A stretch of 64,000 nt of DNA from Escherichia coli O157:H7 (GTDB lineage: Bacteria > Pseudomonadota > Gammaproteobacteria > Enterobacterales > Enterobacteriaceae): NCBI RefSeq assembly GCF_013167455.1, contig NZ_CP038328.1; one strand, written 5' to 3'. Below, in pieces: positions 25,885 through 41,903 of the stretch. The position numbers and the translations under genes were made by a program. The notes under the pieces are model-generated. The model saw only the letters and a program-made list of their open reading frames with translations, ran no database searches and was not told the origin of the DNA. Every line of letters begins with the position of its first letter. The stretch's first letter is position 1.

Positions 25885-27453
25885 TTAGCGTGCCGGCTGA
25901 GTAGTCGTGGAAGACTGCTCAAAGTGATAGCGACCGGTTTTCAGGCTGCTTGGGCCGAGGCGTGCAAACTTGAACATTAAGAACAATTCTGCCACCAGGA
26001 ACAGGGTATACAGGCCGCAAATCAGCACCATTGAGAAGATGAGATCGCCTGCGGTCAGTGACGAGTTCGCCACAGCTGTCGGCAGCACTTCACCGATAGC
26101 CCACGGTTGGCGGCCATATTCAGCCACGAACCAGCCCGCTTCTACAGCAATCCACGGCAGCGGAATACCGTACAGCGCGGCGCGCAGGAGCCATTTTTTC
26201 TCGCCAATGCGGTTGCGGATGACACTCCAGAAAGAGAGCGCGATGATTGCCAGCAGCAGGAAGCCACACGCCACCATGATACGGAACGCGAAGTACAGCG
26301 GCGCTACACGCGGAATGGAGTCTTTGGTTGCCTGTTGAATCTGCGCTTCAGTCGCATCAGCCACGTTTGGCGTATAGCGTTTCAGCAGCAGACCGTAACC
26401 GAGGTCCTTCTTCATGCTATTGAACTGGTCACGAACCGCCTGGTCGGTAGAACCAGAACGCAGTTGTTCGAGCAGAGAGTACGCCTTCATCCCGTTACGA
26501 ATGCGTTCTTCATGCTGCACCATCAGTTCTTTCAGGCCGATAACTGGAGTATCCACGGAACGCGTTGCAATTATGCCCAGCGCGTAAGGGATCTGGATCG
26601 CAAATTTGTTCGTCTCCTCTTCCTGATCAGGAATGCCGAACAGAGTAAAGGCAGCAGGCGCAGGTTGCGTTTCCCACTCAGCTTCAATAGCAGCCAGTTT
26701 GGTTTTCTGCACGTCGCCCATTTCGTAGCCGGATTCATCACCCAGAACAATAACAGACAGAACGGCAGCCATACCGAAGCTGGCAGCGATAGCAAAGGAG
26801 CGTTTAGCGAAGGCGAAGTCACGACCTTTCAGCATATACCATGCGCTGATACCGAGGATGAACATCGCGCCAGTCACATAACCAGACGCTACAGTGTGAA
26901 CGAATTTCACCTGAGCAACCGGGTTAAGCACCAGCTCGGAGAAGCTCACCATCTCCATACGCATAGTTTCAAAGTTGAAATCGGACGCGATTGGGTTTTG
27001 CATCCAGCCGTTCGCAACCAGAATCCACAGTGCGGACAGGTTTGAACCGAGCGCCACCAGCCAGGTGACACACATATGCTGAACTTTACCCAGACGATCC
27101 CAACCGAAGAAGAACAGACCTACAAAGGTGGATTCGAGGAAGAAGGCCATCAGACCTTCGATTGCCAGCGGCGCACCGAAGATATCCCCTACATAGTGGG
27201 AATAGTAAGACCAGTTAGTCCCGAACTGGAACTCCATGGTCAGACCGGTAGCCACACCCAGAGCGAAGTTGATACCAAACAACTTGCCCCAGAACTTGGT
27301 CATATCTTTATAAATCTGTTTGCCGGAAAGGACGTAGACCGTTTCCATAATGGCCAGCAGGAACGCCATACCGAGCGTCAGTGGCACAAAAAGGAAGTGG
27401 TACATCGCGGTCAAGGCAAACTGTAAGCGCGACAGTTCGACTATATCTAACAT
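25885..27453 (-). CDS. cydA: cytochrome bd-I ubiquinol oxidase subunit I
   Basis: ORF track 25885..27456; second ATG gives 522 aa [28 protein letters not shown]. Confidence 0.9.
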
Positions 27454-27790
27454 CATGACTCCTTGCTCATCGCATGAAGACTCCGAGAGTGAACCCCGTT
27501 AGAAAGGGTCACACGCATGCCCCAATACAAAATTATTTGCTCGCCTCTATCGTTGCCATTTCATCAAAAGAGGAAAAGACAATGATAAAAAAGTTACAAA
27601 TATGTTAATGAATAAACCAAATTGATCCCGTAATTATATTACGCCGCAAAATCCTTACAATAAACAGGTTTTTATTGAGCAAATTTGCATTTTTCGACAG
27701 TGATCAATTTATAGCGAAATTGTCACGATCTCACCAATTTGATCTACGACAATTTATCGTGTTTTGCAGATTTTTTTCAAGAATTAAAAA

Positions 27791-27804
27791 TTGATTTATA
27801 TCAA
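27791..27804. promoter_or_regulatory. FNR-type site in the cydAB upstream regulatory region
   Basis: TTGATTTATATCAA is a perfect TTGAT-N4-ATCAA match, about 340 bp upstream of the cydA start in a long AT-rich region. Confidence 0.55.
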
Positions 27805-28258
27805 AACCAACCAAATATGTTAATTATGTATAAACCATAGATCATTGGTGATTTTATTGTTAATTTATTGTGAAATATTTATGCAACACAATTATTACAA
27901 TGAAAAGGTATAGATAAAAAACCAGTATTTTATTTAACAGAACCGCCTTATCCACTTTTTATAATACCAATTGATTAGAGTAGCCAATTTGTTGCTATTT
28001 TACATAACATATTTTTATCAAAGTTAATTGATTGTTGCCTTTATGAGCACCGACCGTAAGCCCGTTATGTTATTGTTTCATTAGTAATAATCACTTAAAT
28101 GTATCGATGAAACAGGTATGACTTACCGGGAGTGATTGTTTCTGAGTGAACAGAGGCCACTTTCGCCTGATAAATGAAAAATGAGCGATTTTTGCAAGTT
28201 AGTTTTTCTATAGCCGAGTACGCTCAGCGCCTCGCTTGATTACAATGAGGTTGCTGCT

Positions 28259-29203
28259 ATGAGTCCTGATAATATCGGTTCGGCTGTCAATCGCTTCTCA
28301 GGTTGGCCATCTAATGATTCTCTAAAAACAGATAAAGAATCAATGACATCACCCGTGACTGTGCAGGTAATAAAGATGATTGCCGCCATCCTTGACCCAC
28401 ATCGGATAGTCGTTGGAATTGATACACTTTATACAACGCAGCGCGAAACATTTACCTCAGAGAGTCAACAGCTCATTGAATCAGCATTGCAAACACTTCA
28501 TGTGATGAATTTAAATAATCTGGAAACAAATCGCGATGAAGAAAGTCACTATCTGGCTTTTGAATATAACGTTGACACCTCTGACAGAATAACCGTTTCT
28601 GCTTATAATGAAAAAAAACCTGGCTGCTATGGCCAATGTCTTGTAATACAGGATGACGAAACAGACTTATTTAACCTGATAAAAATTAAAATTTTCGAAG
28701 CCAGGCATAATTATGTCGCTCAATTGATGAGCGATCCGGAATTTATGTTCAAATTCAGTTATAGCGCTCAACAAAATAGATTAGAACCTCATCTTCTGGT
28801 TCCCGCTTATTTCCCTCTAAAAACAAACGAACCGGTTACGCAAGAGGATGTACTGTTACTTTATCGTTTCTTTAAAATGAATGATGATTTTAATAAATTA
28901 ACATCAGATGAATACATGAGTATCCTGACACCTCTGATGAAGTGTGAGCGTAGCGTCCACGACAACAACAGGTATGTGACGGGCAAAGATACCCTTCTTC
29001 TGGACTATCCTCCTTCTGGTAACCAGATACATTTCCATGTTTTCCCTGACGAATCAGCAACACTAGTCCTTTATTTTTCAAACAATGACATTGAATGTTT
29101 CGTCTTTGAAAGAGATATTCCGAGCCAGTATCGCTTTTTCAAAATGTTTACCAATCTGGCACTGGTTATAGATCAGTTAACCGAAGCCAATAAAATACTT
29201 TAA
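28259..29203 (+). CDS. hypothetical protein, 314 aa, no recognisable family (AT-rich gene)
   Basis: 945-nt ORF in markedly AT-rich DNA where chance ORFs of this length are unlikely; no motif recognised by eye; start could alternatively be the internal ATG near 28345. Confidence 0.6.
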   Translation: MSPDNIGSAVNRFSGWPSNDSLKTDKESMTSPVTVQVIKMIAAILDPHRIVVGIDTLYTTQRETFTSESQQLIESALQTLHVMNLNNLETNRDEESHYLAFEYNVDTSDRITVSAYNEKKPGCYGQCLVIQDDETDLFNLIKIKIFEARHNYVAQLMSDPEFMFKFSYSAQQNRLEPHLLVPAYFPLKTNEPVTQEDVLLLYRFFKMNDDFNKLTSDEYMSILTPLMKCERSVHDNNRYVTGKDTLLLDYPPSGNQIHFHVFPDESATLVLYFSNNDIECFVFERDIPSQYRFFKMFTNLALVIDQLTEANKIL

Positions 29204-29284
29204 TTTTCTATATATCCCCTATGGCAAATATTGCTAAACAATGCCTGGGGATTAATTTTTATTACTCACGGAAAGATTTAAATA

Positions 29285-29707
29285 ATGATACCATCTCAGA
29301 TCTCTTTCAATACCCTTCCAGTCAATGCAACATACGCTTCAGAGACAACAGTTGACACACAAAAATTCTCTGACATCCTCTACTCAGCGGGGTGTTCCCT
29401 AAAGGATATGGCTTATCTGAGCAGATGTCTGGCATCAATACACCCGACTCTCGCCAAAAACATTTATGAAACAGAAAATCTCAGCGATCAAAAATTACTA
29501 CATATTGATTGCCGTAGTACAAATGAAATCAAGATAAATATCTTTTTTGGTCAACAACGAGAAGGATTAATTGAAATTAATTCTGACACAGTCATTTTTT
29601 CGATATTGTCTTCATTAATTGACTCCGCCATTTCTAAATTTCAACACCAAATCCCCGTTAACGGTTCAGTTAATCGTGAACTATTGTATGAGGATTATAC
29701 TGATTAA
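29285..29707 (+). CDS. hypothetical protein, 140 aa, no recognisable family (AT-rich gene)
   Basis: 423-nt ORF 81 bp downstream of the 314-aa ORF, same strand and similar composition; no signal peptide or motif recognised. Confidence 0.55.
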   Translation: MIPSQISFNTLPVNATYASETTVDTQKFSDILYSAGCSLKDMAYLSRCLASIHPTLAKNIYETENLSDQKLLHIDCRSTNEIKINIFFGQQREGLIEINSDTVIFSILSSLIDSAISKFQHQIPVNGSVNRELLYEDYTD

Positions 29708-30254
29708 ATCCACCCTGTCGCGAAAAATGGCCTGCGTTATTGCCAGACGTAATAAAACCTTTGATTAACGTTACTCATACTGATAGCACCTTCATGTACC
29801 TCTCTTTTTTACGAAAAATTAAAAGAGCTAACTAAGGTCATAATTCGCATGAATCATTAACCATTTGTTATTTTCAACATTATTTTTACATTAAGCAGAG
29901 ATGAATTGCAGTGAAATTCGACTTAAATCTTATGAAATGCATTTACTCATGGCTAAAACCACGTCACAAAAATGCAAATTAGAAGTAGATCACAATTATC
30001 TCAATACATTAAATCAAGTTAATTTTAAAAATTTAACACTCATGACATTAGTTGACATAACACACTGAATTAACATGGAAATTTAAAAACACACTTCAAA
30101 CAATCATTTCCCGAAAGACATTTTGAAAATAGATCAATTGCAACATTACGGTCAGATAAAGACACTCCTGTGATATTAAACCTGTGCCGTTATGAACGGC
30201 CATAAATACGACGTGTGTAACTTATTTTACTCTCTGTCTTACAAAGGATTACCC

Positions 30255-30704
30255 ATGAAGAAAGCAACACTTGTGATTGGCGTTATTGGCGCGGACTGCC
30301 ATGCAGTAGGCAATAAAGTTCTGGACCGCGTTTTTAGCAACCACGACTTCAGAGTCATTAATCTGGGCGTAATGGTCAGCCAGGACGAATATATTGATGC
30401 TGCCATTGAAACTGGCGCTGACGCGATTGTCGTCTCCTCTATCTATGGGCATGGCGATATCGACTGTCTGGGCATGCGCGAACGCTGCATCGAGCGTGGA
30501 CTGGGGGACATCCTGCTCTATGTGGGCGGTAACCTGGTGGTCGGAAAACATGACTTCGCTGACGTGGAAACCAAATTCAAAGAGATGGGATTTGATCGCG
30601 TCTTTGCCCCAAGTCATGACTTAGAAGATGTTTGCCAGCTGATGGCCCACGATATCAACCAACGTCATGACGTTGATACTCGTATTCTTGAAGAGGCTAT
30701 CTGA
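30255..30704 (+). CDS. mamA: glutamate mutase (methylaspartate mutase) S subunit, B12-binding
   Basis: ORF track 30192..30704; ATG at 30255 gives 149 aa [22 protein letters not shown] with the cobalamin-binding DxHxxG motif (DCHAVG); closely resembles clostridial GlmS/MutS. Confidence 0.88.
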
Positions 30705-32092
30705 TGCAAATCGTCTCTGTCGATATTGGATCGACGTGGACCAAAGCAGCCCTCTTTACCCGGGAGGGGGACGCGTTAACGTTGGTTAACCACGTACTGA
30801 CCCCAACCACCACCCATCATCTGGCGAAGGGGTTTTTCTCCAGCCTGAACCAGGTGTTAAACGTAGATAATGCCCTCCCCCTGTTAAACAGCGGTGAGGT
30901 TGCATTGAAGTATTCCTCCTCTGCCAAAGGTGGGCTGGCGGTTGCCGCAATGGGATTGGTGCCTTCTATCACCCTGGAAACCGCGAAAGTAACCGCTCAC
31001 TCTGCGGGTGCTAAAATTGCGCAATATTACGCCTACAAGCTGAACCGCCGTGATATCCAGGCACTGGAAGAAACGCAGCCCGATATTCTCTTGTTCACCG
31101 GCGGCACCGACGGCGGAGAAGAAAGCTACGGACTGAATAACGCCCGTGTGCTGGCAGAATCCAAACTCGACTGCGCCATTATTTATGCCGGAAACCGGGA
31201 TATTCAGGACGAGGTGCAGGAGATCCTCGGGCATAAAGACCTGACCATTGTCGACAACGTTCTGCCCGATCTTGACCATCCGAACCCTGTAGCTGCACGC
31301 CAGGCTATTTGCGACATATTCCTTAAACGCATCGTTAAAGGGAAAGGGCTGGATGTCATTGTTGATAAAACAGGCGAAGAACCAATGCCGACACCATGGA
31401 CGGTCTTTGAACTGGTCAAGGCAATCAGTAACGTCGATCACAGCTGGAAAGAGTTCATGCTGATCGACATGGGCGGCGCAACCACCGATGTTTATTCCGC
31501 CTGTGCCAACACGCTCTCGCCCGACACCGTTTTACACGGCGTACCGGAACCCTTCGTAAAACGGACGGTGGAAGGCGATCTGGGAATGCGCGTCTCGGCA
31601 GTGGTGGTTGGTGAAAGTGCGAAAGAGTTAGTCAATGTGAATTTTGCTCAGCAACCCGCACAGCTGGACGCTTTTTATCATTACCTCCGTCATCTAGTCG
31701 CTCATCCCGACTACTTACCCGCAAATGCAGAAGAGAAATATTTCGATACCGTCCTGGCCGGACTGTGTGTGGGTTATGCCACCGAAAGACATGCGGGCAC
31801 CAAAAAAGAGGTCTGCACCTGCGTCGGCAATGTCGATTTACAGATGGGACGTGACCTGACAACCGTGCGTAAAGTCGTCGGATCCGGCGGATGGCTCTCG
31901 CGTGCCAGTCAGTTCGATATGCATCACTGGTTGAAATACCGCGAGTTAAACGACGACGGTAAACGCATTCTCTTACCGACCGAATTTGAATATTACCGCG
32001 ATTCCCGGGGGCTATTACCACTGCTGGCAAACGTCGCCAGAGTCGATCCGCTGGCCGCCGCGCGCACCAGTATTCAATGCTTAACCCTATAA
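30704..32092 (+). CDS. glmL: glutamate mutase-associated protein GlmL/MutL (actin-like ATPase fold; proposed chaperone/reactivase)
   Basis: 462 aa ORF whose start overlaps the S-subunit stop by 1 nt; lies between S and E subunits as in clostridial operons. Confidence 0.7.
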   Translation: MQIVSVDIGSTWTKAALFTREGDALTLVNHVLTPTTTHHLAKGFFSSLNQVLNVDNALPLLNSGEVALKYSSSAKGGLAVAAMGLVPSITLETAKVTAHSAGAKIAQYYAYKLNRRDIQALEETQPDILLFTGGTDGGEESYGLNNARVLAESKLDCAIIYAGNRDIQDEVQEILGHKDLTIVDNVLPDLDHPNPVAARQAICDIFLKRIVKGKGLDVIVDKTGEEPMPTPWTVFELVKAISNVDHSWKEFMLIDMGGATTDVYSACANTLSPDTVLHGVPEPFVKRTVEGDLGMRVSAVVVGESAKELVNVNFAQQPAQLDAFYHYLRHLVAHPDYLPANAEEKYFDTVLAGLCVGYATERHAGTKKEVCTCVGNVDLQMGRDLTTVRKVVGSGGWLSRASQFDMHHWLKYRELNDDGKRILLPTEFEYYRDSRGLLPLLANVARVDPLAAARTSIQCLTL

Positions 32093-32110
32093 CAATTAAG
32101 GCTGCAATCA

Positions 32111-33556
32111 ATGGAACTTCGAAATAAGAAATTAACCCATGACGAATTCATGACCGAGCGGCAACAGGTACTGAAAACCTGGGAAACCGGCAAGGATGTT
32201 GAAAACTTTGAAGATGGCGTTAAATACCAACAAACCATCCCTGAGCATAAACGTTTCTCTCTTGCGCTGCTGAAAGCAGACAAGGAAGGTAAAACCCTTA
32301 GCCAACCGCGCGCAGGTGTGGCGCTGATGGACGAACACATCGAACTGCTGAAAACACTACAAGAAGAGTGCGATCTGCTGCCAAGCACCATCGATGCATA
32401 TACCCGTCTGAATCGGTACGAAGAAGCGGCTGTAGGGATTAAAAAATCCATCGAAGCCGGAACCTCTAAACTGAACGGTTTACCGGTAGTTAACCATGGT
32501 GTCGCAGCTTGCCGTCGCCTCACCGAAACCCTGCAAAAACCGCTACAGATCCGCCACGGCACGCCAGATGCGCGTCTGCTGGCTGAAATCTCAATGGCCA
32601 GCGGCTTTACCAGTTATGAAGGCGGTGGCATTTCCTACAACATTCCGTATGCCAAACGCGTAACGCTGGAAAAATCGATCCGCGACTGGCAGTACTGCGA
32701 CCGTTTAATGGGGATGTATGAAGAACACGGGATCCGCATCAACCGCGAACCGTTTGGCCCACTAACGGGTACGCTGATCCCGCCGTTTATCTCGCACTCT
32801 ATCGCGATAATCGAAGGCTTGCTGGCGCTGGAACAGGGTGTGAAATCTATCACCGTTGGTTATGGCCAGGTCGGCAGCCTGACGCAGGATGTTGCGGCGA
32901 TCCAGTCTCTGCGTGAACTTGCACACGAATATTTTCAGAGCTATGGCTATACCGACTATGAATTGAGTACCGTGTTTCACCAGTGGATGGGCGGCTTTCC
33001 GGAAGACGAATCGAAAGCGTTCGCTATTATCTCCTGGGGCGCAGCCGTCGCGGGGATGTCTGGTGCCACCAAAGTCATCACCAAAAGTCCGCACGAAGCC
33101 TGGGGTATCCCGACTGCCGCTGCCAACATTCAGGGGCTGAAAGCCTCCCGCCAAATGCTCAACATGGTCAATGAGCAGAAATTCCCGCCGTGCCCTGCGG
33201 TTGAACTGGAAATTGAACTGATTAAGAGCGAGGTTCGCGCGGTACTGAATAAAGTGTTCGAACTGGGTAATGGTGATATTGCGCGCGGAACGGTGCTGGC
33301 ATTTGAAGCGGGCGTACTGGATGTGCCGTTTGCGCCAGCCGCCTGCAACGCGGGCAAAATTCTTCCGGTCCGTGACAACACCGGCGCGATACGCGTACTG
33401 GAAGCCGGAGCCGTTCCATTGCCAAAAGATATTCTCGACCTCCACCACGATTACGTTGCGGAACGCGCACGCTGTGAAGGACGCCAACCGACATTCCAGA
33501 TGGTTGTAGATGACATCAATGCTGTATCCCACAGTAAATTAATAGGAAGACCATAA
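32111..33556 (+). CDS. glmE: glutamate mutase (methylaspartate mutase) E subunit, catalytic
   Basis: 481 aa ORF MELRNKKLTHDEF...QPRAGVALMDEHIELLK...LPSTIDAYTRLNRYEE, closely resembling clostridial GlmE. Confidence 0.9.
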   Translation: MELRNKKLTHDEFMTERQQVLKTWETGKDVENFEDGVKYQQTIPEHKRFSLALLKADKEGKTLSQPRAGVALMDEHIELLKTLQEECDLLPSTIDAYTRLNRYEEAAVGIKKSIEAGTSKLNGLPVVNHGVAACRRLTETLQKPLQIRHGTPDARLLAEISMASGFTSYEGGGISYNIPYAKRVTLEKSIRDWQYCDRLMGMYEEHGIRINREPFGPLTGTLIPPFISHSIAIIEGLLALEQGVKSITVGYGQVGSLTQDVAAIQSLRELAHEYFQSYGYTDYELSTVFHQWMGGFPEDESKAFAIISWGAAVAGMSGATKVITKSPHEAWGIPTAAANIQGLKASRQMLNMVNEQKFPPCPAVELEIELIKSEVRAVLNKVFELGNGDIARGTVLAFEAGVLDVPFAPAACNAGKILPVRDNTGAIRVLEAGAVPLPKDILDLHHDYVAERARCEGRQPTFQMVVDDINAVSHSKLIGRP

Positions 33557-34797
33557 TGAAAATAAAACAGGCTCTGTTCACCGCTGGCTACTCCTCATTC
33601 TATTTCGATGACCAGCAGGCGATAAAAAACGGAGCGGGTCATGACGGCTTTTTTTATACCGGGGAGCCAGTAACACAGGGGTTTAACGCCGTACGTCAGG
33701 CCGGGGAGTGCGTATCGGTACAGTTGATTCTGGAAAACGGCGCGGTCGCCGTAGGTGACTGTACTGCCGTACAGTATTCCGGGGCAGGCGGTCGCGATCC
33801 ACTGTTCCTCGCAGAGCACTTTATTCCGTTCCTCAACGACCATATCAAGCCATTACTGGTAGGCCGCGATGTGGATGCTTTCCTGCCGAATGCCCGTTTC
33901 TTCGACAAATTGCGTATTGACGGCAACTTGCTGCATACCGCCGTGCGCTACGGATTATCACAGGCGCTGCTTGATGCTACCGCGCTGGCAACCGGCCGTC
34001 TGAAAACTGAAGTGGTCTGTGATGAATGGCAGTTGCCACGCGTGGCGGAATCCATTCCATTATTTGGTCAGAGCGGCGACGATCGATATATCGCCGTCGA
34101 TAAGATGATCCTTAAAGGCATCGACGTGCTGCCCCATGCGCTGATTAATAACGTCGAAGAGAAGCTGGGCTTTAAAGGTGAAAAACTGCGCGAATATGTC
34201 CGCTGGTTGTCGGATCGCATTCTAAGCAAGCGCACCAGCGCACGCTACCACCCTACCCTGCACATCGATGTATACGGCACTATCGGTCTGATCTTCGATA
34301 TGGATCCGCTTCGCTGTGCGCAATACATCGCCAGCCTGGAAAAAGAAGCGCAAGGCCTGCCGCTCTACATCGAAGGGCCGGTCGATGCCGGTAACAAGCC
34401 CGATCAAATTCGCCTGCTGACCGCGATTACCAAAGAGCTGACGCGCCTCGGTTCCGGCGTGAAAATTGTGGCCGATGAATGGTGTAACACCTACCAGGAT
34501 ATTGTTGATTTCACTGATGCTGCCAGTTGTCACATGGTGCAAATCAAAACCCCGGATCTGGGCAGTATTCACAACATCGTCGATGCGGTTCTTTACTGCA
34601 ACAGCCACAGCATGGAAGCGTACCAGGGCGGCACCTGCAATGAAACTGATGTCAGTGCCCGCACCTGTGTCCACGTCGCCCTTGCCGCTCGCCCCATGCG
34701 TATGCTGGTAAAACCAGGGATGGGCTTTGACGAAGGCCTCGATATCGTCTTCAACGAAATGAATCGTACTATCGCGCTGTTGCAGGCTAAGGATTAA
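33556..34797 (+). CDS. 3-methylaspartate ammonia-lyase (beta-methylaspartase)
   Basis: 413 aa ORF MKIKQALFTAGYSSFYFDDQQAIKNGAGHDGFFYTGE...VQYSGAGGRDPLFLAE, enolase-superfamily MAL; start overlaps the glmE stop by 1 nt. Confidence 0.9.
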   Translation: MKIKQALFTAGYSSFYFDDQQAIKNGAGHDGFFYTGEPVTQGFNAVRQAGECVSVQLILENGAVAVGDCTAVQYSGAGGRDPLFLAEHFIPFLNDHIKPLLVGRDVDAFLPNARFFDKLRIDGNLLHTAVRYGLSQALLDATALATGRLKTEVVCDEWQLPRVAESIPLFGQSGDDRYIAVDKMILKGIDVLPHALINNVEEKLGFKGEKLREYVRWLSDRILSKRTSARYHPTLHIDVYGTIGLIFDMDPLRCAQYIASLEKEAQGLPLYIEGPVDAGNKPDQIRLLTAITKELTRLGSGVKIVADEWCNTYQDIVDFTDAASCHMVQIKTPDLGSIHNIVDAVLYCNSHSMEAYQGGTCNETDVSARTCVHVALAARPMRMLVKPGMGFDEGLDIVFNEMNRTIALLQAKD

Positions 34798-34800
34798 CAA

Positions 34801-36171
34801 ATGGCTCGTTCTTTTAAAGTCTTATCGCCAACGGCAATCCTCGGGTATGGATTCCCGGAAGAGAGCTTCCGCAAAGCGATGGCAGAATCGCCCGATCTGA
34901 TCGCCGTTGATGCAGGCTCTTCCGATCCAGGCCCCCACTACCTCGGGGCAGGCAAACCGTTTACCGATCGCGCAGGGGTCAAGCGCGATCTGCGCTATAT
35001 GATCACCGCAGGCGTGCAAAATAATATACCGGTGGTGATCGGAACGGCTGGCGGTTCTGGTGCCGCACCACACCTGGAGTGGTGCCGAGAAATAATTCAT
35101 GAGATTGCCCGGGAAGAGCACCTCTCGTTCTCGATGGCGTTGATCCCGGCAGACGTTGACAAAGCCATCGTCCACCAGGCGCTGGATAACGGCAAAATCA
35201 CGGCGCTGGATTTTGTCCCGCCGTTAACCCACGACGCGATTGACGAAAGTACGTATATCGTCGCGCAAATGGGCATCGAACCCTTCCAGCGGGCGCTGAA
35301 AGAACGCGCGCAAGTGGTGCTGGGCGGGCGCGCTTACGACCCGGCCTGCTTTGCTGCGCTCCCGATCATGCAAGGCTTTGATGAAGGTCTGGCGCTGCAT
35401 TGTGGGAAAATCCTTGAATGCGCGGCAATCGCCGCAACGCCCGGCTCAGGCTCTGACTGTGCGATGGGCATCATTGATGACAACGGCTTTACGCTGAAAA
35501 CATTTAATCCGAAGCGTAAATTTACCGAAACGTCAGCAGCTGCACACACACTGTATGAGAAATCCGATCCCTACTTCCTGCCAGGACCTGGCGGCGTGTT
35601 GAACCTGAAAGGCTGCACATTTAAAGCAGTAAATGACGGCGAAGTCTACGTCAGCGGTTCTAAGCATGAAGAAACGCCGTATGCCCTGAAACTGGAAGGT
35701 GCACGACGGGTGGGCTTCCGCTGTCTGACCATCGCCGGAACGCGCGACCCGATTATGATCGCCGGGATCGATAAAATCATCGATGAAGTCAAAACCAGCG
35801 TTTCGCGTAACCTGTCGCTCGACGATGACAGCATTCGCATCAATTTCCACCTGTACGGCAAAAACGGGGTGATGGGAGACCATGAACCGATGCAAACTGC
35901 CGGGCATGAGCTGGGGATTGTCCTTGATGTAGTTGCACCGACCCAGGAAATTGCCAACAGCGTTTGCTCGCTGGTGCGCTCTACCATGCTGCACTACGGC
36001 TATGAAAACCGCATCGCTACCGCAGGTAATCTGGCGTTCCCGTTCTCCCCTTCTGATATCCAGGGCGGGCCGGTATACGAATTTTCCATATATCACCTGA
36101 TTGAAGCCAACGACGCTCTGCGTTTTGATTTCCATATTGAACAGGTGACGCCAGAAGGAGTTCAGGCATGA
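34801..36171 (+). CDS. uncharacterised conserved protein, 456 aa (possibly DUF1446/AtuA-like; assignment from memory, unverified)
   Basis: ORF begins 3 nt after the MAL stop; Gly-rich segment GTAGGSGAAPH; no characterised catalytic motif recognised. Confidence 0.6.
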   Translation: MARSFKVLSPTAILGYGFPEESFRKAMAESPDLIAVDAGSSDPGPHYLGAGKPFTDRAGVKRDLRYMITAGVQNNIPVVIGTAGGSGAAPHLEWCREIIHEIAREEHLSFSMALIPADVDKAIVHQALDNGKITALDFVPPLTHDAIDESTYIVAQMGIEPFQRALKERAQVVLGGRAYDPACFAALPIMQGFDEGLALHCGKILECAAIAATPGSGSDCAMGIIDDNGFTLKTFNPKRKFTETSAAAHTLYEKSDPYFLPGPGGVLNLKGCTFKAVNDGEVYVSGSKHEETPYALKLEGARRVGFRCLTIAGTRDPIMIAGIDKIIDEVKTSVSRNLSLDDDSIRINFHLYGKNGVMGDHEPMQTAGHELGIVLDVVAPTQEIANSVCSLVRSTMLHYGYENRIATAGNLAFPFSPSDIQGGPVYEFSIYHLIEANDALRFDFHIEQVTPEGVQA

Positions 36172-36485
36172 AACAGTCAATTGTCTCACTGGCGCAAGTC
36201 ATTCGTTCGAAAAATGCCGGACCTTACGAACTGGTTTTAGATATTTTATTTAAAACGAAAGAAAACTATGAGCGAGTTAAATCATCAGGGCAATTAACCC
36301 CAGAACTGATTGCACGCTTATATCATGTTGAACCTGACTTTATTCATCGTATTGTCTGGTTTGATCCTTCTAACGCAGTAAAAATCGTCATGCCACGAGA
36401 TATTATCTCCGGGAATGTAGGTGACAATGATGTCTATGGTGCACAGCAACATGCACCTTTATTAAATATGAGTTTCGATTTGTAA
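36168..36485 (+). CDS. uncharacterised small protein, 105 aa (possibly DUF4387-like; unverified)
   Basis: ORF overlapping the preceding gene by 4 nt (ATGA), indicating translational coupling. Confidence 0.55.
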   Translation: MKQSIVSLAQVIRSKNAGPYELVLDILFKTKENYERVKSSGQLTPELIARLYHVEPDFIHRIVWFDPSNAVKIVMPRDIISGNVGDNDVYGAQQHAPLLNMSFDL

Positions 36486-36568
36486 AAATCCGAATACTTT
36501 TAGCCAACTGACATCCCGTCACTTATTGCAGTTCAACACTTCAGCTATTTGTAAGGTTGTAATAGCAG

Positions 36569-36600
36569 GTAGATGCCTGAATCTCTATTCAGGCATCTAC
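36569..36600 (+). terminator. Perfect 14-bp inverted repeat (terminator or operator candidate)
   Basis: GTAGATGCCTGAAT-CTCT-ATTCAGGCATCTAC between the 105-aa ORF and the transporter gene; only a weak T-run follows. Confidence 0.45.
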
Positions 36601-36645
36601 TTCTCCTGATTCTGATTTATCGCCGTGCACCTGATGGAGGAAAAA

Positions 36646-37926
36646 ATGAAGAAAATAAGTTTAACCACGATGATTCTTTTGGCGCTGGTACTTGGAATGA
36701 TTATCGGCGTAGTGCTCAATAACACTGCTTCACCGGAAACCGCAAAACTCTATGCGCAAGAAATATCGATATTCACGACGATTTTCTTACGACTGATAAA
36801 AATGATTATCGCTCCGTTAGTGGTCTCTACCCTGGTGGTAGGTATTGCTAAAATGGGCGATGCCAAAGCCCTTGGTCGTATTTTTTCTAAAACACTCTTT
36901 TTATTTATTTGCGCCTCATTGCTGTCAATTGCCTTAGGCTTGATAACGGTAAATTTCTTCATGCCAGGTACAGGAATTAATTTTGTTGCACACGGTGCCG
37001 AAACCACCGGAGTGGTCGCGGCAGAACCCTTTACGCTAAAAGTATTTATTTCGCATGCTTTCCCCACCAGCATTGTCGATGCCATGGCGCACAATGAAAT
37101 TTTGCAAATCGTGGTGTTCTCAATTTTCCTCGGCTGTAGCCTGACGGCGATTGGCGAGAAAGGCAGCGCCATCGTTCACGCCTTAGATTCGCTGGCACAT
37201 GCCATGTTAAAGCTCACTGGCTACGTCATGCTCTTCGCTCCCCTGACCGTATTCGCTGCTATTTCAGCATTGATTGCTGAACGAGGACTGGCAGTTATGG
37301 TGAGCGCCGGGATCTTTATGGGTGAATTTTATTTCACCATGTTATTACTTTGGGTACTGCTTATCGGTCTGGCCATCGTTTATGTCGGCCCCTGCATCAG
37401 ACGCCTGACCCGCGCCCTTTCGGAACCCGCCCTGCTGGCATTTACCACATCCAGTTCTGAAGCGGCTTTTCCGGGAACGCTTGAAAAACTGGAGCAATTT
37501 GGCGTTTCCCCCAAAATTGCCAGCTTTGTCTTACCCATTGGCTACTCATTTAATCTCGTTGGATCAATGGCCTACTGCTCCTTCGCCACAGTTTTCATCG
37601 CCCAGGCCTGCAATATCCATTTATCCATCGGTGAGCAAATCACCATGCTGTTGATCCTGATGTTGACCTCGAAAGGAATGGCTGGCGTACCACGCGCCTC
37701 AATGGTGGTTATCGCCGCCACGCTCAACCAGTTCAATATTCCGGAAGCGGGGCTGATCTTGCTGATGGGCGTTGATCCGTTCCTTGATATGGGGCGTTCC
37801 GCGACAAACGTCATGAGCAACGCAATGGGCGCTGCGATGGTGAGTCGGTGGGAAGGCGAACATTTCGGCGAGGGCTGTCGGGGTAAAGCATTAAAACCCA
37901 ATGAATCGAACGTTGCTCTGCCCTGA
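36646..37926 (+). CDS. dicarboxylate/amino-acid:cation symporter (GltP/DctA family), probable glutamate or C4/C5-dicarboxylate uptake
   Basis: ORF track 36625..37926; ATG at 36646 is preceded by GGAGG; multi-TM protein MKKISLTTMILLALVLGMIIGVVLNN. Confidence 0.75.
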   Translation: MKKISLTTMILLALVLGMIIGVVLNNTASPETAKLYAQEISIFTTIFLRLIKMIIAPLVVSTLVVGIAKMGDAKALGRIFSKTLFLFICASLLSIALGLITVNFFMPGTGINFVAHGAETTGVVAAEPFTLKVFISHAFPTSIVDAMAHNEILQIVVFSIFLGCSLTAIGEKGSAIVHALDSLAHAMLKLTGYVMLFAPLTVFAAISALIAERGLAVMVSAGIFMGEFYFTMLLLWVLLIGLAIVYVGPCIRRLTRALSEPALLAFTTSSSEAAFPGTLEKLEQFGVSPKIASFVLPIGYSFNLVGSMAYCSFATVFIAQACNIHLSIGEQITMLLILMLTSKGMAGVPRASMVVIAATLNQFNIPEAGLILLMGVDPFLDMGRSATNVMSNAMGAAMVSRWEGEHFGEGCRGKALKPNESNVALP

Positions 37927-38033
37927 GGGGGATCTTAAGCAATCAGAAGCCAATGACTACGCATTTTTATAAGCCGGATCATGAAGTTAGACGGCAATTA
38001 AGTAACACTAACGTTTAAGGTGAAAAGTGAAAT

Positions 38034-39686
38034 ATGTCCAAACCATTTATCTGGCAAGAACCGTTTCTACAAAATAAAGACGGTACAGAATATACATTAA
38101 TTAGCGATCAACATATTACAGTAACGGAATTAGACGGCGAAGAAGTGATAAAAATCGCTCCTGAAGCATTAACGCTGCTTGCCCGGCAGGCATTTTATGA
38201 AGCCTCTTTTTTCTTACGTTCCGCTCATTTGCAACAGGTCGCCAGCATTCTTAACGATCAGCAGGCCAGCAGTAATGATAAATACGTTGCGTTGCAGTTA
38301 TTACGTAATGCTGAAGTCTCAGCAAAAGGGGTATTACCCAACTGTCAGGATACCGGCACCGCAACTATTGTTGCCAGTAAAGGGCAACAGATATGGACCG
38401 GAGGTAACGACGCCGAAGCCTTAAGTAAAGGCATTTACAGTACTTTCCAGGAAAATAATCTGCGCTTTTCACAAAATGCGCCGCTGGATATGTATACCGA
38501 AGTCAATACGCAAACCAATCTCCCGGCGCAGATTGATATCAGCGCTGTCGCTGGTGATGAGTACCATTTTCTCTGTGTTAATAAAGGGGGCGGCTCCGCC
38601 AATAAAGCCGCGCTTTATCAGGAAACCAAATCCTTATTGCAACCAGAAAAACTGACCGCATTTTTAATCGAAAAAATGAAATCGCTGGGCACCGCTGCCT
38701 GCCCGCCTTACCACATCGCCTTTGTCGTCGGAGGGCTTTCAGCCGATCAAACCTTAAAAATTGCCAAGCTGGCCTCAACGAAATATTACGACAATTTGCC
38801 CACCAGCGGAAACGAGCAGGGACAAGCATTCCGTGATATTGAGCTGGAAAAAGTGTTGCTCGAGGCCAGTCAGCAATTTGGTATTGGTGCGCAATTTGGG
38901 GGTAAATATTTCGCTCATGATATTCGCGTCATTCGTCTGCCGCGTCACGGTGGCTCTTGCCCGATAGCTATGGCGCTCTCCTGTTCTGCCGATCGCAATA
39001 TCAAAGCAAAAATTAACAAACACGGTATCTGGCTGGAAAAACTCGAACACAATCCGGGGCAATATATTCCAGCCTCACTGCGGGAAGAAAATCACGCGCA
39101 ACATGTACAACTGGATCTAAACCGTCCGTTGCGTGACGTGATGCAGGATCTCGCCAGATTACCAGTAGGCACCCGCGTGTCGTTAAGTGGTCCCATCGTA
39201 GTGGCGCGCGATATCGCCCACGCCAAAATAAAAGCGCGGCTGGATAGCGGCGAACCGATGCCGGAGTACCTGAAGCATCATATTGTCTATTACGCTGGCC
39301 CGGCGAAAACACCGGAGAACATGGCCTGCGGTTCACTGGGTCCAACCACGGGCGGTCGAATGGACGGTTATATCGATACCTTCCAGGCGGCTGGCGGCAG
39401 TCTAGTGATGTTATCGAAAGGTAACCGCAGCCAGCAGGTCACCGATGCCTGTCACAAACATGGCGGCTTCAATCTGGGAAGTATTGGCGGTGCAGCTGCG
39501 TTACTGGCGCAAGAATATGTCAAAAGTCTGCGTTGCCTGGAATACCCGGAGCTGGGTATGGAAGCGGTGTGGATGATGGAAGTGGAAAATCTGCCCGCAT
39601 TCATCCTGGTAGATGATAAAGGCAATAATTTCTTTAGTCAGTTTGAGCAGCAACACCGCTGCGCCAGTTGCCCTGCGGGACATTAA
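38034..39686 (+). CDS. fumD: class I (Fe-S) fumarate hydratase paralogue, FumD-type mesaconase/fumarase
   Basis: 550 aa ORF closely similar to FumA/FumB over its length ([38 protein letters not shown]), located in the glutamate mutase cluster. Confidence 0.85.
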
Positions 39687-39695
39687 GGAAAATGA

Positions 39696-40298
39696 ATGGA
39701 AGCGCGAATTTCAACTGAACGGCATGTGCAGCGCCAACAGAAATTGAAGGAACAGGTCGATACGCGCGTCGCGGCGGCGATAGAGAAAAAAGGGATCTTG
39801 ATTGTTTTCACCGGCAACGGCAAAGGGAAATCCACTGCCGCGTTTGGTACTGTGACGCGCGCGGTGGGTCATGGCAAAACGGTGGGGGTTGCGCAGTACA
39901 TCAAGGGGCAATGGGACAACGGCGAATACAACCTTCTCCAGCCGCTGGGGGTTGAGTTTCATATTATGGGAACCGGTTTTACCTGGGAGACACAGAACCG
40001 GCAAGCGGATATCGACGCGGCGAAAGAGGTCTGGTCGGAAAGCAAACGGATGCTGGCTGACAAGCGTTACGACTTAGTGGTGCTTGATGAGCTGACCTAT
40101 ATGCTGGCTTACCATTATCTGGATACCGAAGAAGTGATCGCTTCTCTGCAAAACCGCCCGGCACAACAAAGTGTCATTGTCACCGGACGCGGTTGCCACA
40201 GTCAGATATTAAAAATGGCAGATACGGTCAGCGAAATCCGCCCCGTCAAACATGCTTTTGATAACGGCATTCAGGCCCAGCCGGGTATCGACTGGTAA
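39696..40298 (+). CDS. cob(I)alamin adenosyltransferase, BtuR/CobA family
   Basis: 200 aa ORF with P-loop FTGNGKGKSTAAFG and strong resemblance to E. coli BtuR. Confidence 0.85.
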   Translation: MEARISTERHVQRQQKLKEQVDTRVAAAIEKKGILIVFTGNGKGKSTAAFGTVTRAVGHGKTVGVAQYIKGQWDNGEYNLLQPLGVEFHIMGTGFTWETQNRQADIDAAKEVWSESKRMLADKRYDLVVLDELTYMLAYHYLDTEEVIASLQNRPAQQSVIVTGRGCHSQILKMADTVSEIRPVKHAFDNGIQAQPGIDW

Positions 40299-40301
40299 TA
40301 A

Positions 40302-40334
40302 CTGCGCCTGGCATCCCGCCAGGCGCAGGTTTTA
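40302..40334. terminator. Bidirectional hairpin between convergent adenosyltransferase and LysR genes
   Basis: CTGCGCCTGG-loop-CCAGGCGCAG followed by GTTTTA; overlaps the LysR stop codon. Confidence 0.5.
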
Positions 40335-41237
40335 CATCTCCTGCGGTACGACCGATTTCGCCAGCAACCATTCACGAAATTGCTGCAAGTGCGGTGAGTC
40401 AGACTTCTCTTCCTGCCACGTCATAATAAAACGATTACCGGTACGAATAGGCACATCACAGGGAATCACCATATCGCCACTATCCAAATCATGTTGAATA
40501 GCGAAACGTGGTAACAGCGCCACGCCGAGATTAGAGCGCACGGCGGCAATCAGCATTGAAAGCAAATCGAAACGTGGTCCGTTGTTGACCAGCGGACTGC
40601 TAACGCCAGATAAAGCAAACCACTCTTCCCAGCCAGTAATACGGGTGCTTTGATGCAGAAGTGGTAACTCAGTAAGCAGTTCTGCCACTGACAGTTTTTG
40701 ATCGGACATTGCAAGCAAACTGCCGCTGCATACCGGCAAAATCTCCTCTTCAAAGAGATATTCTACTTCCGCCCAGGGCGCGCAAAAATTTTCGCGCATA
40801 ATGACAGCATCGTACTCCCGATTAAGAAAATCGCCGTTATTAGCTAAAGAATGAATATTAACAATAATATCGGGATGTAACTTTGTGAATTCATGTAAAT
40901 TTGGGATTAACCAGTGGGTACTAAAAGTAGGATTAACGGCAAGTTCAATAACCTGAACCGTAGGCTGCCAGGTCATAATGGTATTGGTATCGCGTTCCAG
41001 CTTATTTAATGTTTCTTTTACTATCCCCAGGTAATACTTCCCTGTATCATTAAGAAAAATGCGTTTTTTAGAGTGTGAAAATAACGGAGTACGTAAAAAT
41101 TCCTCCAGCGCACTTACTTGTCTGAATACTGCACTTTGGGTTAACGCTAACTCCTCTGCCGCTCTGGTATAACTTTCATGACGTGCGACGACCTCAAAAG
41201 TCACCAGCAGTTCCGTTTTAGGTATTTTCCCTCGCAT
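40332..41237 (-). CDS. LysR-family transcriptional regulator
   Basis: 301 aa ORF with N-terminal HTH (LLVTFEVVARHESYTRAAEELALTQSAVFRQVSALE) and C-terminal substrate-binding domain. Confidence 0.85.
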   Translation of the reverse strand: MRGKIPKTELLVTFEVVARHESYTRAAEELALTQSAVFRQVSALEEFLRTPLFSHSKKRIFLNDTGKYYLGIVKETLNKLERDTNTIMTWQPTVQVIELAVNPTFSTHWLIPNLHEFTKLHPDIIVNIHSLANNGDFLNREYDAVIMRENFCAPWAEVEYLFEEEILPVCSGSLLAMSDQKLSVAELLTELPLLHQSTRITGWEEWFALSGVSSPLVNNGPRFDLLSMLIAAVRSNLGVALLPRFAIQHDLDSGDMVIPCDVPIRTGNRFIMTWQEEKSDSPHLQQFREWLLAKSVVPQEM

Positions 41238-41802
41238 AATGCCGTCCCTTAAAAATAGTTTAAACCATCAAAAATACATTACTTATTACGAAGTAATGGT
41301 AACCAAAGCAGCAATAAATAATTTATAAGAATCATGATTGACATTTATAAACCAGTAAGGCTGGCGTGACAAATATCTTAATCAGATAATAATAATCCGA
41401 AAAGCACAGCGCCTTTCGAATTATCCGGAATCACATTAAGTGAAAATTATTAAATTGATATCATTTATCATATCTGTGGATATTATGATAAACAATCAAC
41501 AAAGATTTTATTTTTGATTTATAGCATATCCCTCTAAGAATTTTTGCGATGCTGCAATATCCGGGGTAAAGACCCGATCCTGGCTGACAAATGGCACGAC
41601 TTGACGAAAAGCGGTGAACATCGCTTTTGTTGATTTACTTAACGCTACGGTCAAACGCTGGGAAGCCAGTGCATCAGGTAACGATTCGAAATTCGCCGTC
41701 GTTCTTATTCGTGGCTTGCGGTCGGTTGCGGCAATCCACAGTGGCTGTGGTCATGCAGTCAAGCCTGCAGTCAGATTTCGACCGTGGTTAACCGTTTAAG
41801 GC

Positions 41803-41903
41803 ATAAAAAAGGCCATCATACGATGGCCAACCATGTCGAAACCGACAGCCCTTCGCCATTCCTGTAGAGGGAAGCGGCGAGGGCTATTTCTTATTACAGA
41901 TAT
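41803..41903 (-). ncRNA. sdhX: SdhX (RybD) sRNA region, sucD 3'UTR ending at an intrinsic terminator
   Basis: 3'UTR of sucD on the minus strand ends in GGCCATCGTATGATGGCC plus TTTTTT and contains ACAGGAATGGCGAAGGGCTGTCGGTTTCGACATGG, which I recall as the SdhX region; exact 5' end not determined. Confidence 0.55.

Follow-up and report, generated by a model that had tools for sequence, protein, structure and literature searches.

The ORF pair and its composition

The 64,000-nucleotide stretch of Escherichia coli O157:H7 DNA analysed here (contig NZ_CP038328.1 of assembly GCF_013167455.1; hereafter the window) carries, between cydA and the glutamate (methylaspartate) mutase operon, two open reading frames (ORFs) named ORF314 and ORF140. 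Both are listed as 'hypothetical protein' in RefSeq by the Prokaryotic Genome Annotation Pipeline (PGAP). A first-pass annotation had placed two co-directional ORFs here; its coordinates were matched exactly, with both genes on the plus strand. The features of the pair are the following.

28259..29203, plus strand: ORF314, 945 nt, 314 amino acids (aa); WP_001310136.1
29285..29707, plus strand: ORF140, 140 aa; WP_000613119.1
29204..29284, plus strand: spacer between the two ORFs, 81 nt
28247..28250, plus strand: Shine-Dalgarno motif GAGG of ORF314, 8 nt before the ATG, as read from the sequence
29270-29275, plus strand: weaker ribosome-binding site GGAAAG of ORF140, within the spacer, read in the same way
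29389..29392, plus strand: GGGG run in ORF140, at about codon 35; deletion of one base here leaves a protein of only 38 aa

The pair was 100% identical to that of EDL933, and positions 27400-30300 of the window were found at 100% identity in several O157:H7-type genomes. Differences in length between alleles are accounted for by the spacer (79-81 nt).

The GC content was 0.382 for ORF314 and 0.364 for ORF140, with 0.36 and 0.33, respectively, at third codon positions (GC3). The intergenic DNA flanking the pair was at 0.30-0.33. For comparison, values of 0.529, 0.498, 0.531 and 0.526 were obtained for cydA, glmS, glmL and glmE, and 0.508 for the whole window. The pair is thus more AT-rich than both the backbone and the mutase genes (0.36-0.38 versus 0.50-0.53), as had been described at first reading.

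Coding status and selection

When the AT-rich stretch was shuffled 2000 times, the longest ORF starting with ATG measured 65 aa on average and 160 aa at most. A frame of at least 140 aa arose in 0.15% of the shuffles and one of at least 314 aa in none, in agreement with the initial view that these ORFs are long for chance frames.

The ratio of nonsynonymous to synonymous substitution rates (dN/dS) against the 92%-identical E. coli allele was 0.41 for ORF314 and 0.40 for ORF140. Against the E. albertii orthologue (63% aa identity), ORF314 gave 0.45. Over all comparisons the values ranged from 0.41 to 0.46 for ORF314 and from 0.31 to 0.40 for ORF140, while the neighbours cydA, glmS and glmL gave 0-0.17. 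The excess of synonymous changes was evidenced by binomial tests (p = 1e-5, 5e-4 and 8e-3). The corresponding ratio for polymorphisms within E. coli (pN/pS), calculated over ten distinct alleles, was 0.42 for ORF314 and 0.32 for ORF140. The most constrained part of ORF140 was its core, residues 46-100 (pN/pS 0.16). No hypervariable segment, as found in immunity proteins or antigenic effectors, was detected among the ten E. coli alleles.

The 945-nt frame of ORF314 is kept in E. albertii, and the N-terminal 100 residues are the part best conserved between the two species. Purifying selection acts on both ORFs, showing that they are coding sequences and not chance ORFs; ORF314 and ORF140 are genuine protein-coding genes. 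Since both proteins are under selection, with dN/dS values of 0.3-0.45, they must be expressed somewhere.

Protein properties and homology searches

Both proteins are acidic (isoelectric point, pI, of 4.8) and hydrophilic. No transmembrane segment or signal peptide was evident, the maximal Kyte-Doolittle values over a 19-residue window being 1.25 and 1.37. The N-termini of both are polar, rich in Ser, Thr, Asn and Pro, and were modelled as unstructured; S, T, N, Q and P make up 44-56% of the first 25 residues in a count by eye, which is a non-specific heuristic. The AlphaFold models, for which the only alignments available were used, were poor, with predicted local distance difference test (pLDDT) scores of 45 for ORF314 and 41 for ORF140. 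In the low-confidence model of ORF140, three helices are followed by three strands and one helix.

Whether queried with single sequences or family profiles, Pfam, NCBIfam, PADLOC, PHROGs and the PDB sequences gave no match at E < 0.01, and the fold libraries gave none for either protein. No catalytic or enzymatic domain (nuclease, ATPase, NTase, TIR, SIR2 or similar) and no DNA-binding domain was found in the profile searches. These results and the hydropathy values confirm the first-pass annotation, in which no motif, signal peptide or transmembrane segment had been recognised. That annotation had also proposed the pair as a candidate for something undescribed, and the remote searches indeed place neither protein in a characterised family. 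Nothing on these genes was found in the literature supplements searched. Both proteins are undescribed and match no known family.

Among 5.8 billion proteins, a word-indexed search yielded 43 clusters for ORF140 and five for ORF314, and those with a named source all came from E. coli, Shigella or E. albertii. A profile hidden Markov model search of 1.84 billion cluster representatives returned 14 proteins, all of them short fragments of the same family. When one genome per species was scanned (100,044 species), four loci were obtained: one each in E. albertii and Escherichia sp. MOD1-EC7003, and two in metagenome bins that bear the labels Collinsella and Citrobacter. No copy was present in 50,697 phage records. 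Only three matches were labelled 'plasmid', in records of 4.9 Mb, 4.9 Mb and 730 kb, which are probably mislabelled chromosomal sequence. ORF314 and ORF140 are restricted to Escherichia.

The copies in the 'Collinsella sp.' and 'Citrobacter sp.' bins were 92-94% identical, on contigs with 96-97% DNA identity to the region; most simply, these are mis-binned E. coli contigs.

The AlphaFold strings (disordered N-terminus, helices, three strands, long helix) gave the idea that ORF140 could be a paralogue of each half of ORF314. This was not supported by the alignment z-scores against shuffles (-1.15, -0.34 and 2.0), by hhalign (E = 0.12, probability 0.5%) or by BLASTP (E = 3.1).

The insertion and its empty site in sister genera

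The surroundings of the pair are listed below.

27872..30097: Escherichia-specific AT-rich insertion of about 2.2 kb, in the cydA-glmS intergenic region, GC 0.30-0.38, carrying both ORFs
27457..27871, minus strand: ancestral upstream (regulatory) region of cydAB, outside the insertion; 79-84% identity with Salmonella and Pseudescherichia
30098..30254, plus strand: ancestral upstream region of glmS, right border of the insertion; conserved with Salmonella, Pseudescherichia and Citrobacter
Left of ORF314, minus strand: cydA, across an 802-nt intergenic region
Right of ORF140, starting after 547 nt: operon glmS-glmL-glmE-methylaspartate ammonia-lyase-AtuA-DUF4387-symporter
After the symporter: fumD-cobO on the opposite strand, then a LysR-family gene, then sucD

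Homology with Salmonella and Pseudescherichia vulneris ends at 27831-27871 and resumes at 30098-30113. Salmonella enterica and P. vulneris have the mutase operon at the corresponding chromosomal position, immediately next to cydA and divergent from it, with cydA-glmS intergenic regions of 1216 nt and 848 nt, respectively, in which neither ORF is present. In Citrobacter koseri it is mngR, not cydA, that lies upstream of glmS, and the right boundary at 30113 is shared. No remnants of ORF314 or ORF140 were detected by tblastn in the Salmonella, Pseudescherichia and Citrobacter loci. Since homology is lost at about 27871 and regained at about 30098 in the sister genera, the pair sits in an Escherichia-specific insertion of about 2.2 kb. 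A foreign origin separate from that of the backbone and the mutase genes, as suggested at first reading, is supported by the site being empty in these three genera and by a composition that differs from the flanks.

On the left, the cydAB upstream region was present in all 5425 matching E. coli genomes. On the right, the glmS upstream sequence is conserved at 30098-30179 in Salmonella, at 30113-30141 in Pseudescherichia (93% over 29 nt) and from 30113 in Citrobacter. No integrase, tRNA, mobility gene or flanking repeat was found at the insertion. A candidate terminal inverted repeat of 24 nt (28118-28141/30098-30121, 79% complementary) was discarded: its 19/24 matches equal the shuffle median, and its right arm falls in sequence conserved in Salmonella.

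Upstream of ORF314, positions 27872-28094 showed 92% identity with LF82-type B2 strains that lack the pair, and Salmonella does not share this segment. The breakpoint in the LF82-type strains, a deletion or a replacement, lies 165 nt before the ORF314 start, and no remnants of the pair were found in them.

Distribution and relation to the mutase cluster

The pair was matched in 1135 of 5426 complete E. coli genomes (about 21%). It is chromosomal and occurs at one place per genome, the exceptions being one genome with a match split by an insertion sequence (IS) and the few probably mislabelled 'plasmid' records. In a separate search, the mutase cluster was also matched in 1135 E. coli genomes, in a list that was not cross-checked with the first. 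The association is broken in both directions outside E. coli. Salmonella, C. koseri and P. vulneris have the complete cluster without the pair, and E. albertii has ORF314 beside cydA and no cluster, with an outer-membrane-protein-like gene and sucD following. The cluster has been reported in many other genera (PMC4682846). The pair therefore does not belong to the glutamate fermentation pathway and is an older resident of a variable interval; it is independent of the mutase cluster. Co-occurrence of the two across genera, for which phylogenetic profiling had been proposed in the first-pass annotation, was not borne out.

Carriers of the pair include lineages positive for the locus of enterocyte effacement (LEE), namely O157:H7, O145, E2348/69 and E. 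albertii. Others are enterotoxigenic E. coli (ETEC) O169:H41, a porcine ETEC and many extra-intestinal and animal isolates, which we take to be LEE-negative. LEE-positive O26:H11 11368 has mngRAB at the site and no pair. The LEE status of the strains, including that of 11368, is presumed from general knowledge, and the comparison is one of single strains.

Conservation and decay

Seven non-O157 E. coli genomes were fetched, and six of them have an intact ORF314, as does one E. albertii contig. ORF140 was damaged more often. The unrelated strains O145 RM8843-C1 and ETEC1701 carry different one-base deletions at the GGGG run, annotated by PGAP as 'frameshifted', and their ORF314 is intact. A span of 1447 nt was seen in about 3 of 40 spread-sampled carriers, and both of those fetched carry an ORF140 frameshift. 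Forms of ORF140 with a frameshifted C-terminus, of 160 aa, are often met in the databases.

More extensive damage was found in other genomes. In E. coli Br_112_kylling, ORF314 is interrupted by IS4-family elements, which also remove the end of ORF140, leaving residues 1 to about 123. In the E. albertii contig with an intact ORF314 (L003), ORF140 is recognisable only at residues 1-9 and 30-60, in different frames. In the E. albertii type strain, ORF314 is split into 209 + 108 aa and ORF140 is decayed. The cryptic strain Escherichia sp. MOD1-EC7003 has an enterobacterial repetitive intergenic consensus (ERIC) element in ORF314, a second one in the spacer, further frameshifts and a deletion of the 5' part of ORF140. 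The UniProt entries of Shigella dysenteriae are shortened, to 229 and 88 aa for ORF314 and to 103 aa for ORF140.

ORF140 has less than half the length of ORF314 and yet is hit more often, so ORF314 is the more strongly selected of the two and persists without its neighbour. The decay is asymmetric, ORF140 being lost or frameshifted where ORF314 stays. Disruption in related genomes, which had been raised beforehand as a possible objection to the pair, does occur in the E. albertii type strain, MOD1-EC7003, the IS-hit E. coli and S. dysenteriae; in typical E. coli, by contrast, ORF314 is well preserved.

The two elements of MOD1-EC7003 (locus L013, 7348-7470 and 8090-8210) are copies of about 120 bp of the ERIC element, also called intergenic repeat unit (IRU; GTGAATCCCCAGGAGCTTACATAAGTAAGTGACTGGGG), in opposite orientations. 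This genome is a clear case of a coding sequence disrupted by ERIC elements.

Expression and regulatory signals

In published RNA-seq data, ORF314 and ORF140 reached 0-5 reads per kilobase per million mapped reads (RPKM) in 11 conditions, and neither protein was detected in a shotgun proteome table. In the same data, cydA gave RPKM values of 13-212 in ten conditions and 2 in LB-antibiotics, and a ccd-like toxin-antitoxin pair gave 21-316. The near-silence is most likely due to xenogeneic silencing of the AT-rich DNA by H-NS. No terminator-like site was predicted in the 81-nt spacer, which suggests that the two genes probably form a bicistronic unit.

The best sigma-70-like match of the region lies inside ORF314, at 28581-28609 on the plus strand (CTGACA, 17-nt spacer, TATAAT, 11/12). 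Promoter-like sites numbered 10 in the region versus 12.1 ± 3.6 in shuffles, that is, there was no excess. A riboswitch or other RNA element was considered, but Rfam at E <= 1 found nothing in 27300-30400, including no cobalamin riboswitch upstream of the B12-dependent mutase.

Interpretation

The findings are best explained by an old, horizontally acquired, silenced and probably bicistronic orphan operon in which ORF314 is the selected unit, a reading to which we assign a probability of roughly 60%. An ancestor of Escherichia, before the split between E. coli and E. albertii, would have gained about 2.2 kb of AT-rich foreign DNA. This piece would have been inserted between the cydAB promoter region and the glutamate (methylaspartate) mutase operon, and then inherited vertically at a single chromosomal site. 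The AT-rich genes would be kept near-untranscribed under laboratory and environmental conditions, with H-NS silencing as the likely cause, until some signal relieves the silencing; they would presumably be used in a niche outside those sampled. ORF314 and ORF140, both soluble and acidic, would have a cytoplasmic, non-enzymatic role. ORF314 may act alone, probably by binding other proteins; its partner ORF140 would be dispensable and is eroding in several lineages.

Some points weigh against this explanation. Given the selection on both ORFs, 'silent' holds for the conditions sampled only. Upstream of ORF314, the plus strand has no predicted sigma-70-like promoter, and co-transcription is deduced solely from how closely the genes are spaced and from no terminator being predicted between them. 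Of the approximately 1135 carriers in E. coli, 7 were inspected at sequence level; the frameshifts at the GGGG run may be homopolymer sequencing errors. The structure models are unreliable at such low pLDDT values, so that either protein may still have a known fold. No positive evidence for any biochemical activity was obtained.

The alternatives put forward in the first-pass annotation, an effector with its chaperone, a toxin with its immunity protein and a two-gene defence module, gained no support from profiles or folds. That ORF314 and/or ORF140 are type III effectors of the LEE or of E. coli type III secretion system 2 (ETT2), or that ORF140 is the dedicated chaperone of ORF314, is very unlikely. 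The LEE and ETT2 islands are AT-rich. The pair resembles non-LEE type III effectors and class I chaperones (Tir/CesT) in being AT-rich, lineage-restricted, soluble and silent in standard media, in its polar N-termini of unstructured appearance and in its small acidic second protein (ORF140, pI 4.8), and several of its carriers are LEE-positive. However, no effector or chaperone family (CesT/SycE-type) was matched by homology or fold, and the pair lies outside prophages and pathogenicity islands. Its distribution does not follow the LEE, being absent from O26:H11 11368 and present in ETEC O169:H41, a porcine ETEC and many other isolates. Conservation in ORF314 is highest at the N-terminus, where a secretion signal would typically be under loose constraint, and the order of the elements predicted for ORF140 (a low-confidence model) differs from the CesT-type order. 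Finally, the supposed chaperone is lost while ORF314 is kept, and the pair is therefore not an obligate one. Its dispensable second gene bears differently on a toxin-antitoxin or immunity pair, in which ORF140 would be toxic and ORF314 protective. Loss of ORF140 with ORF314 intact excludes ORF140 as the antitoxin and fits it as the toxin. AbiEi/AbiEii-like and DarTG-like layouts are type II toxin-antitoxin operons with a large antitoxin, and the pair resembles them in its two tightly spaced, co-directional genes, the larger upstream and the small one downstream. ORF140 is disrupted alone, and ORF314 mainly where ORF140 is damaged, as if loss of the antitoxin only were harmful. Even so, such a pair is improbable, because neither toxin, antitoxin or immunity homology nor a DNA-binding domain was found (Pfam, NCBIfam, PADLOC), the RPKM values are far below those of the ccd-like pair, and the genes are immobile, in one genus and at one chromosomal site, without plasmid or phage copies. 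In addition, Br_112_kylling combines an IS-split ORF314 with a nearly complete ORF140. The 802 nt upstream hold only short ORFs, and no remnant of a toxin domain was noticed there.

That the pair is an anti-phage defence module of two genes, located in a variable hotspot of the chromosome, is even more doubtful. The content of the sucD-cydA interval varies (mngRAB, a tetratricopeptide repeat (TPR) protein, the mutase cluster or an outer-membrane protein gene), and the pair is AT-rich without an assigned function, as many newly found defence genes once were. PADLOC nevertheless gave 0 hits, PHROG none, and there is no enzymatic domain. The distribution is vertical, at a single locus of one genus and not patchy across taxa, with no copies in phages or plasmids; mobility genes and flanking repeats are missing, the candidate inverted repeat is at chance level, and the genes are essentially untranscribed. 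There is just as little to recommend a role as accessory or regulatory proteins of the neighbouring operons, those of glutamate/methylaspartate fermentation or of cytochrome bd-I. The pair adjoins the O157:H7 glutamate (methylaspartate) fermentation cluster, glmS-glmL-glmE-MAL-...-fumD (MAL, methylaspartate ammonia-lyase; Kronen and Berg 2015, PMC4682846), and equals it with 1135 matches in the two lists; ORF314 is also divergent from cydA and stays beside it even in E. albertii. But each is found without the other outside E. coli: Salmonella, C. koseri and Pseudescherichia have the full cluster and no pair, and E. albertii has ORF314 and no cluster. Homologues of the pair are confined to Escherichia, in contrast to a cluster reported from many genera, and the pair is present in about 21% of E. 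coli genomes, in contrast to the universal cydAB. Its composition is sharply unlike that of both neighbours, no regulator-like domain was found, and the acidic pI speaks against DNA binding. The idea that the ORFs are non-functional relics or de novo frames persisting by drift would fit the lack of homologues elsewhere, the low confidence of structure prediction, the near-zero transcription, the undetected proteins and the repeated disruption (E. albertii type strain, MOD1-EC7003, IS elements, frameshifts and truncated S. dysenteriae entries). It is unlikely in view of dN/dS values that, at three levels of divergence, fall significantly below 1 for both ORFs, of a 945-nt frame kept at 63% aa identity between E. 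coli and E. albertii, and of 314 open codons in DNA of 38% GC, which are not a chance product; no non-coding precursor was identifiable in the sister genera. A long shot of a different kind is that ORF314, with or without ORF140, forms a new family with a new fold, exclusive to Escherichia and derived from an unsampled donor or de novo. It would then have a host-induced niche role, for example as a secreted or host-interacting factor of attaching and effacing (A/E-type) Escherichia or as the protective half of a toxin-antitoxin-like pair. By every feature tested, the pair is outside the known effector, chaperone, toxin-antitoxin, immunity, defence and glutamate-fermentation families.

Having no homologue outside the genus, and being under purifying selection with a conserved frame, ORF314 and ORF140 are orphan protein-coding genes. 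The closest category for the silenced orphan operon favoured here is that of xenogeneically silenced AT-rich islets with taxonomically restricted genes. The pair is like these in a GC content 12-15 points below that of the genome, in the empty site of the sister genera, in the absence of homologues outside the genus, in near-zero transcription in vitro, in fast but constrained evolution and in sporadic pseudogenisation. Composition and empty site are observed, and H-NS silencing would be in line with the near-zero transcription. The pair differs in having no integrase, tRNA site or flanking repeats. It also predates the E. coli/E. albertii split and yet keeps a GC3 of 0.33-0.36, with no drift toward the host.

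The proteins are undescribed, and the phenomenon itself belongs to a familiar, well-known class. If the explanation is true, the locus is one more case of foreign, AT-rich, lineage-restricted DNA that is silent and slowly eroding. It is a clean and bounded case. Its insertion site and approximate boundaries are known, its age predates the E. coli/E. albertii split, the sister genera keep the empty site and the two genes differ in constraint, which makes it a usable model for long-term selection on silenced orphan genes. The tempting view of these ORFs as part of the O157:H7 glutamate-fermentation island is corrected. Lasting selection on a silent gene of such age is mildly intriguing; a specific function (effector, antitoxin, defence) would add weight, and no finding points to one.

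The variable interval and the glmS upstream region

The sucD-cydA interval, corresponding to about 27872-41900 of the window, is a variable hotspot. It holds mngR-mngA-mngB in K-12-like strains and in O26:H11, a TPR protein in LF82, and the orphan pair plus the mutase cluster in O157:H7 and about 21% of E. coli. In E. albertii it contains ORF314 plus the outer-membrane-protein-like gene (258 aa), of which no remnant was found in the window, and in C. koseri mngBAR plus the mutase cluster.

The conserved region at 30098..30254 probably serves the mutase operon as promoter or operator. It includes a near-palindrome, TTGAAAATAGATCAA, at 30123-30137, which resembles a pair of half-sites of the FNR/CRP family with a gap of 7 nt instead of 6 between TTGA and TCAA. 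The stretch around it is possibly the operator or promoter in question.

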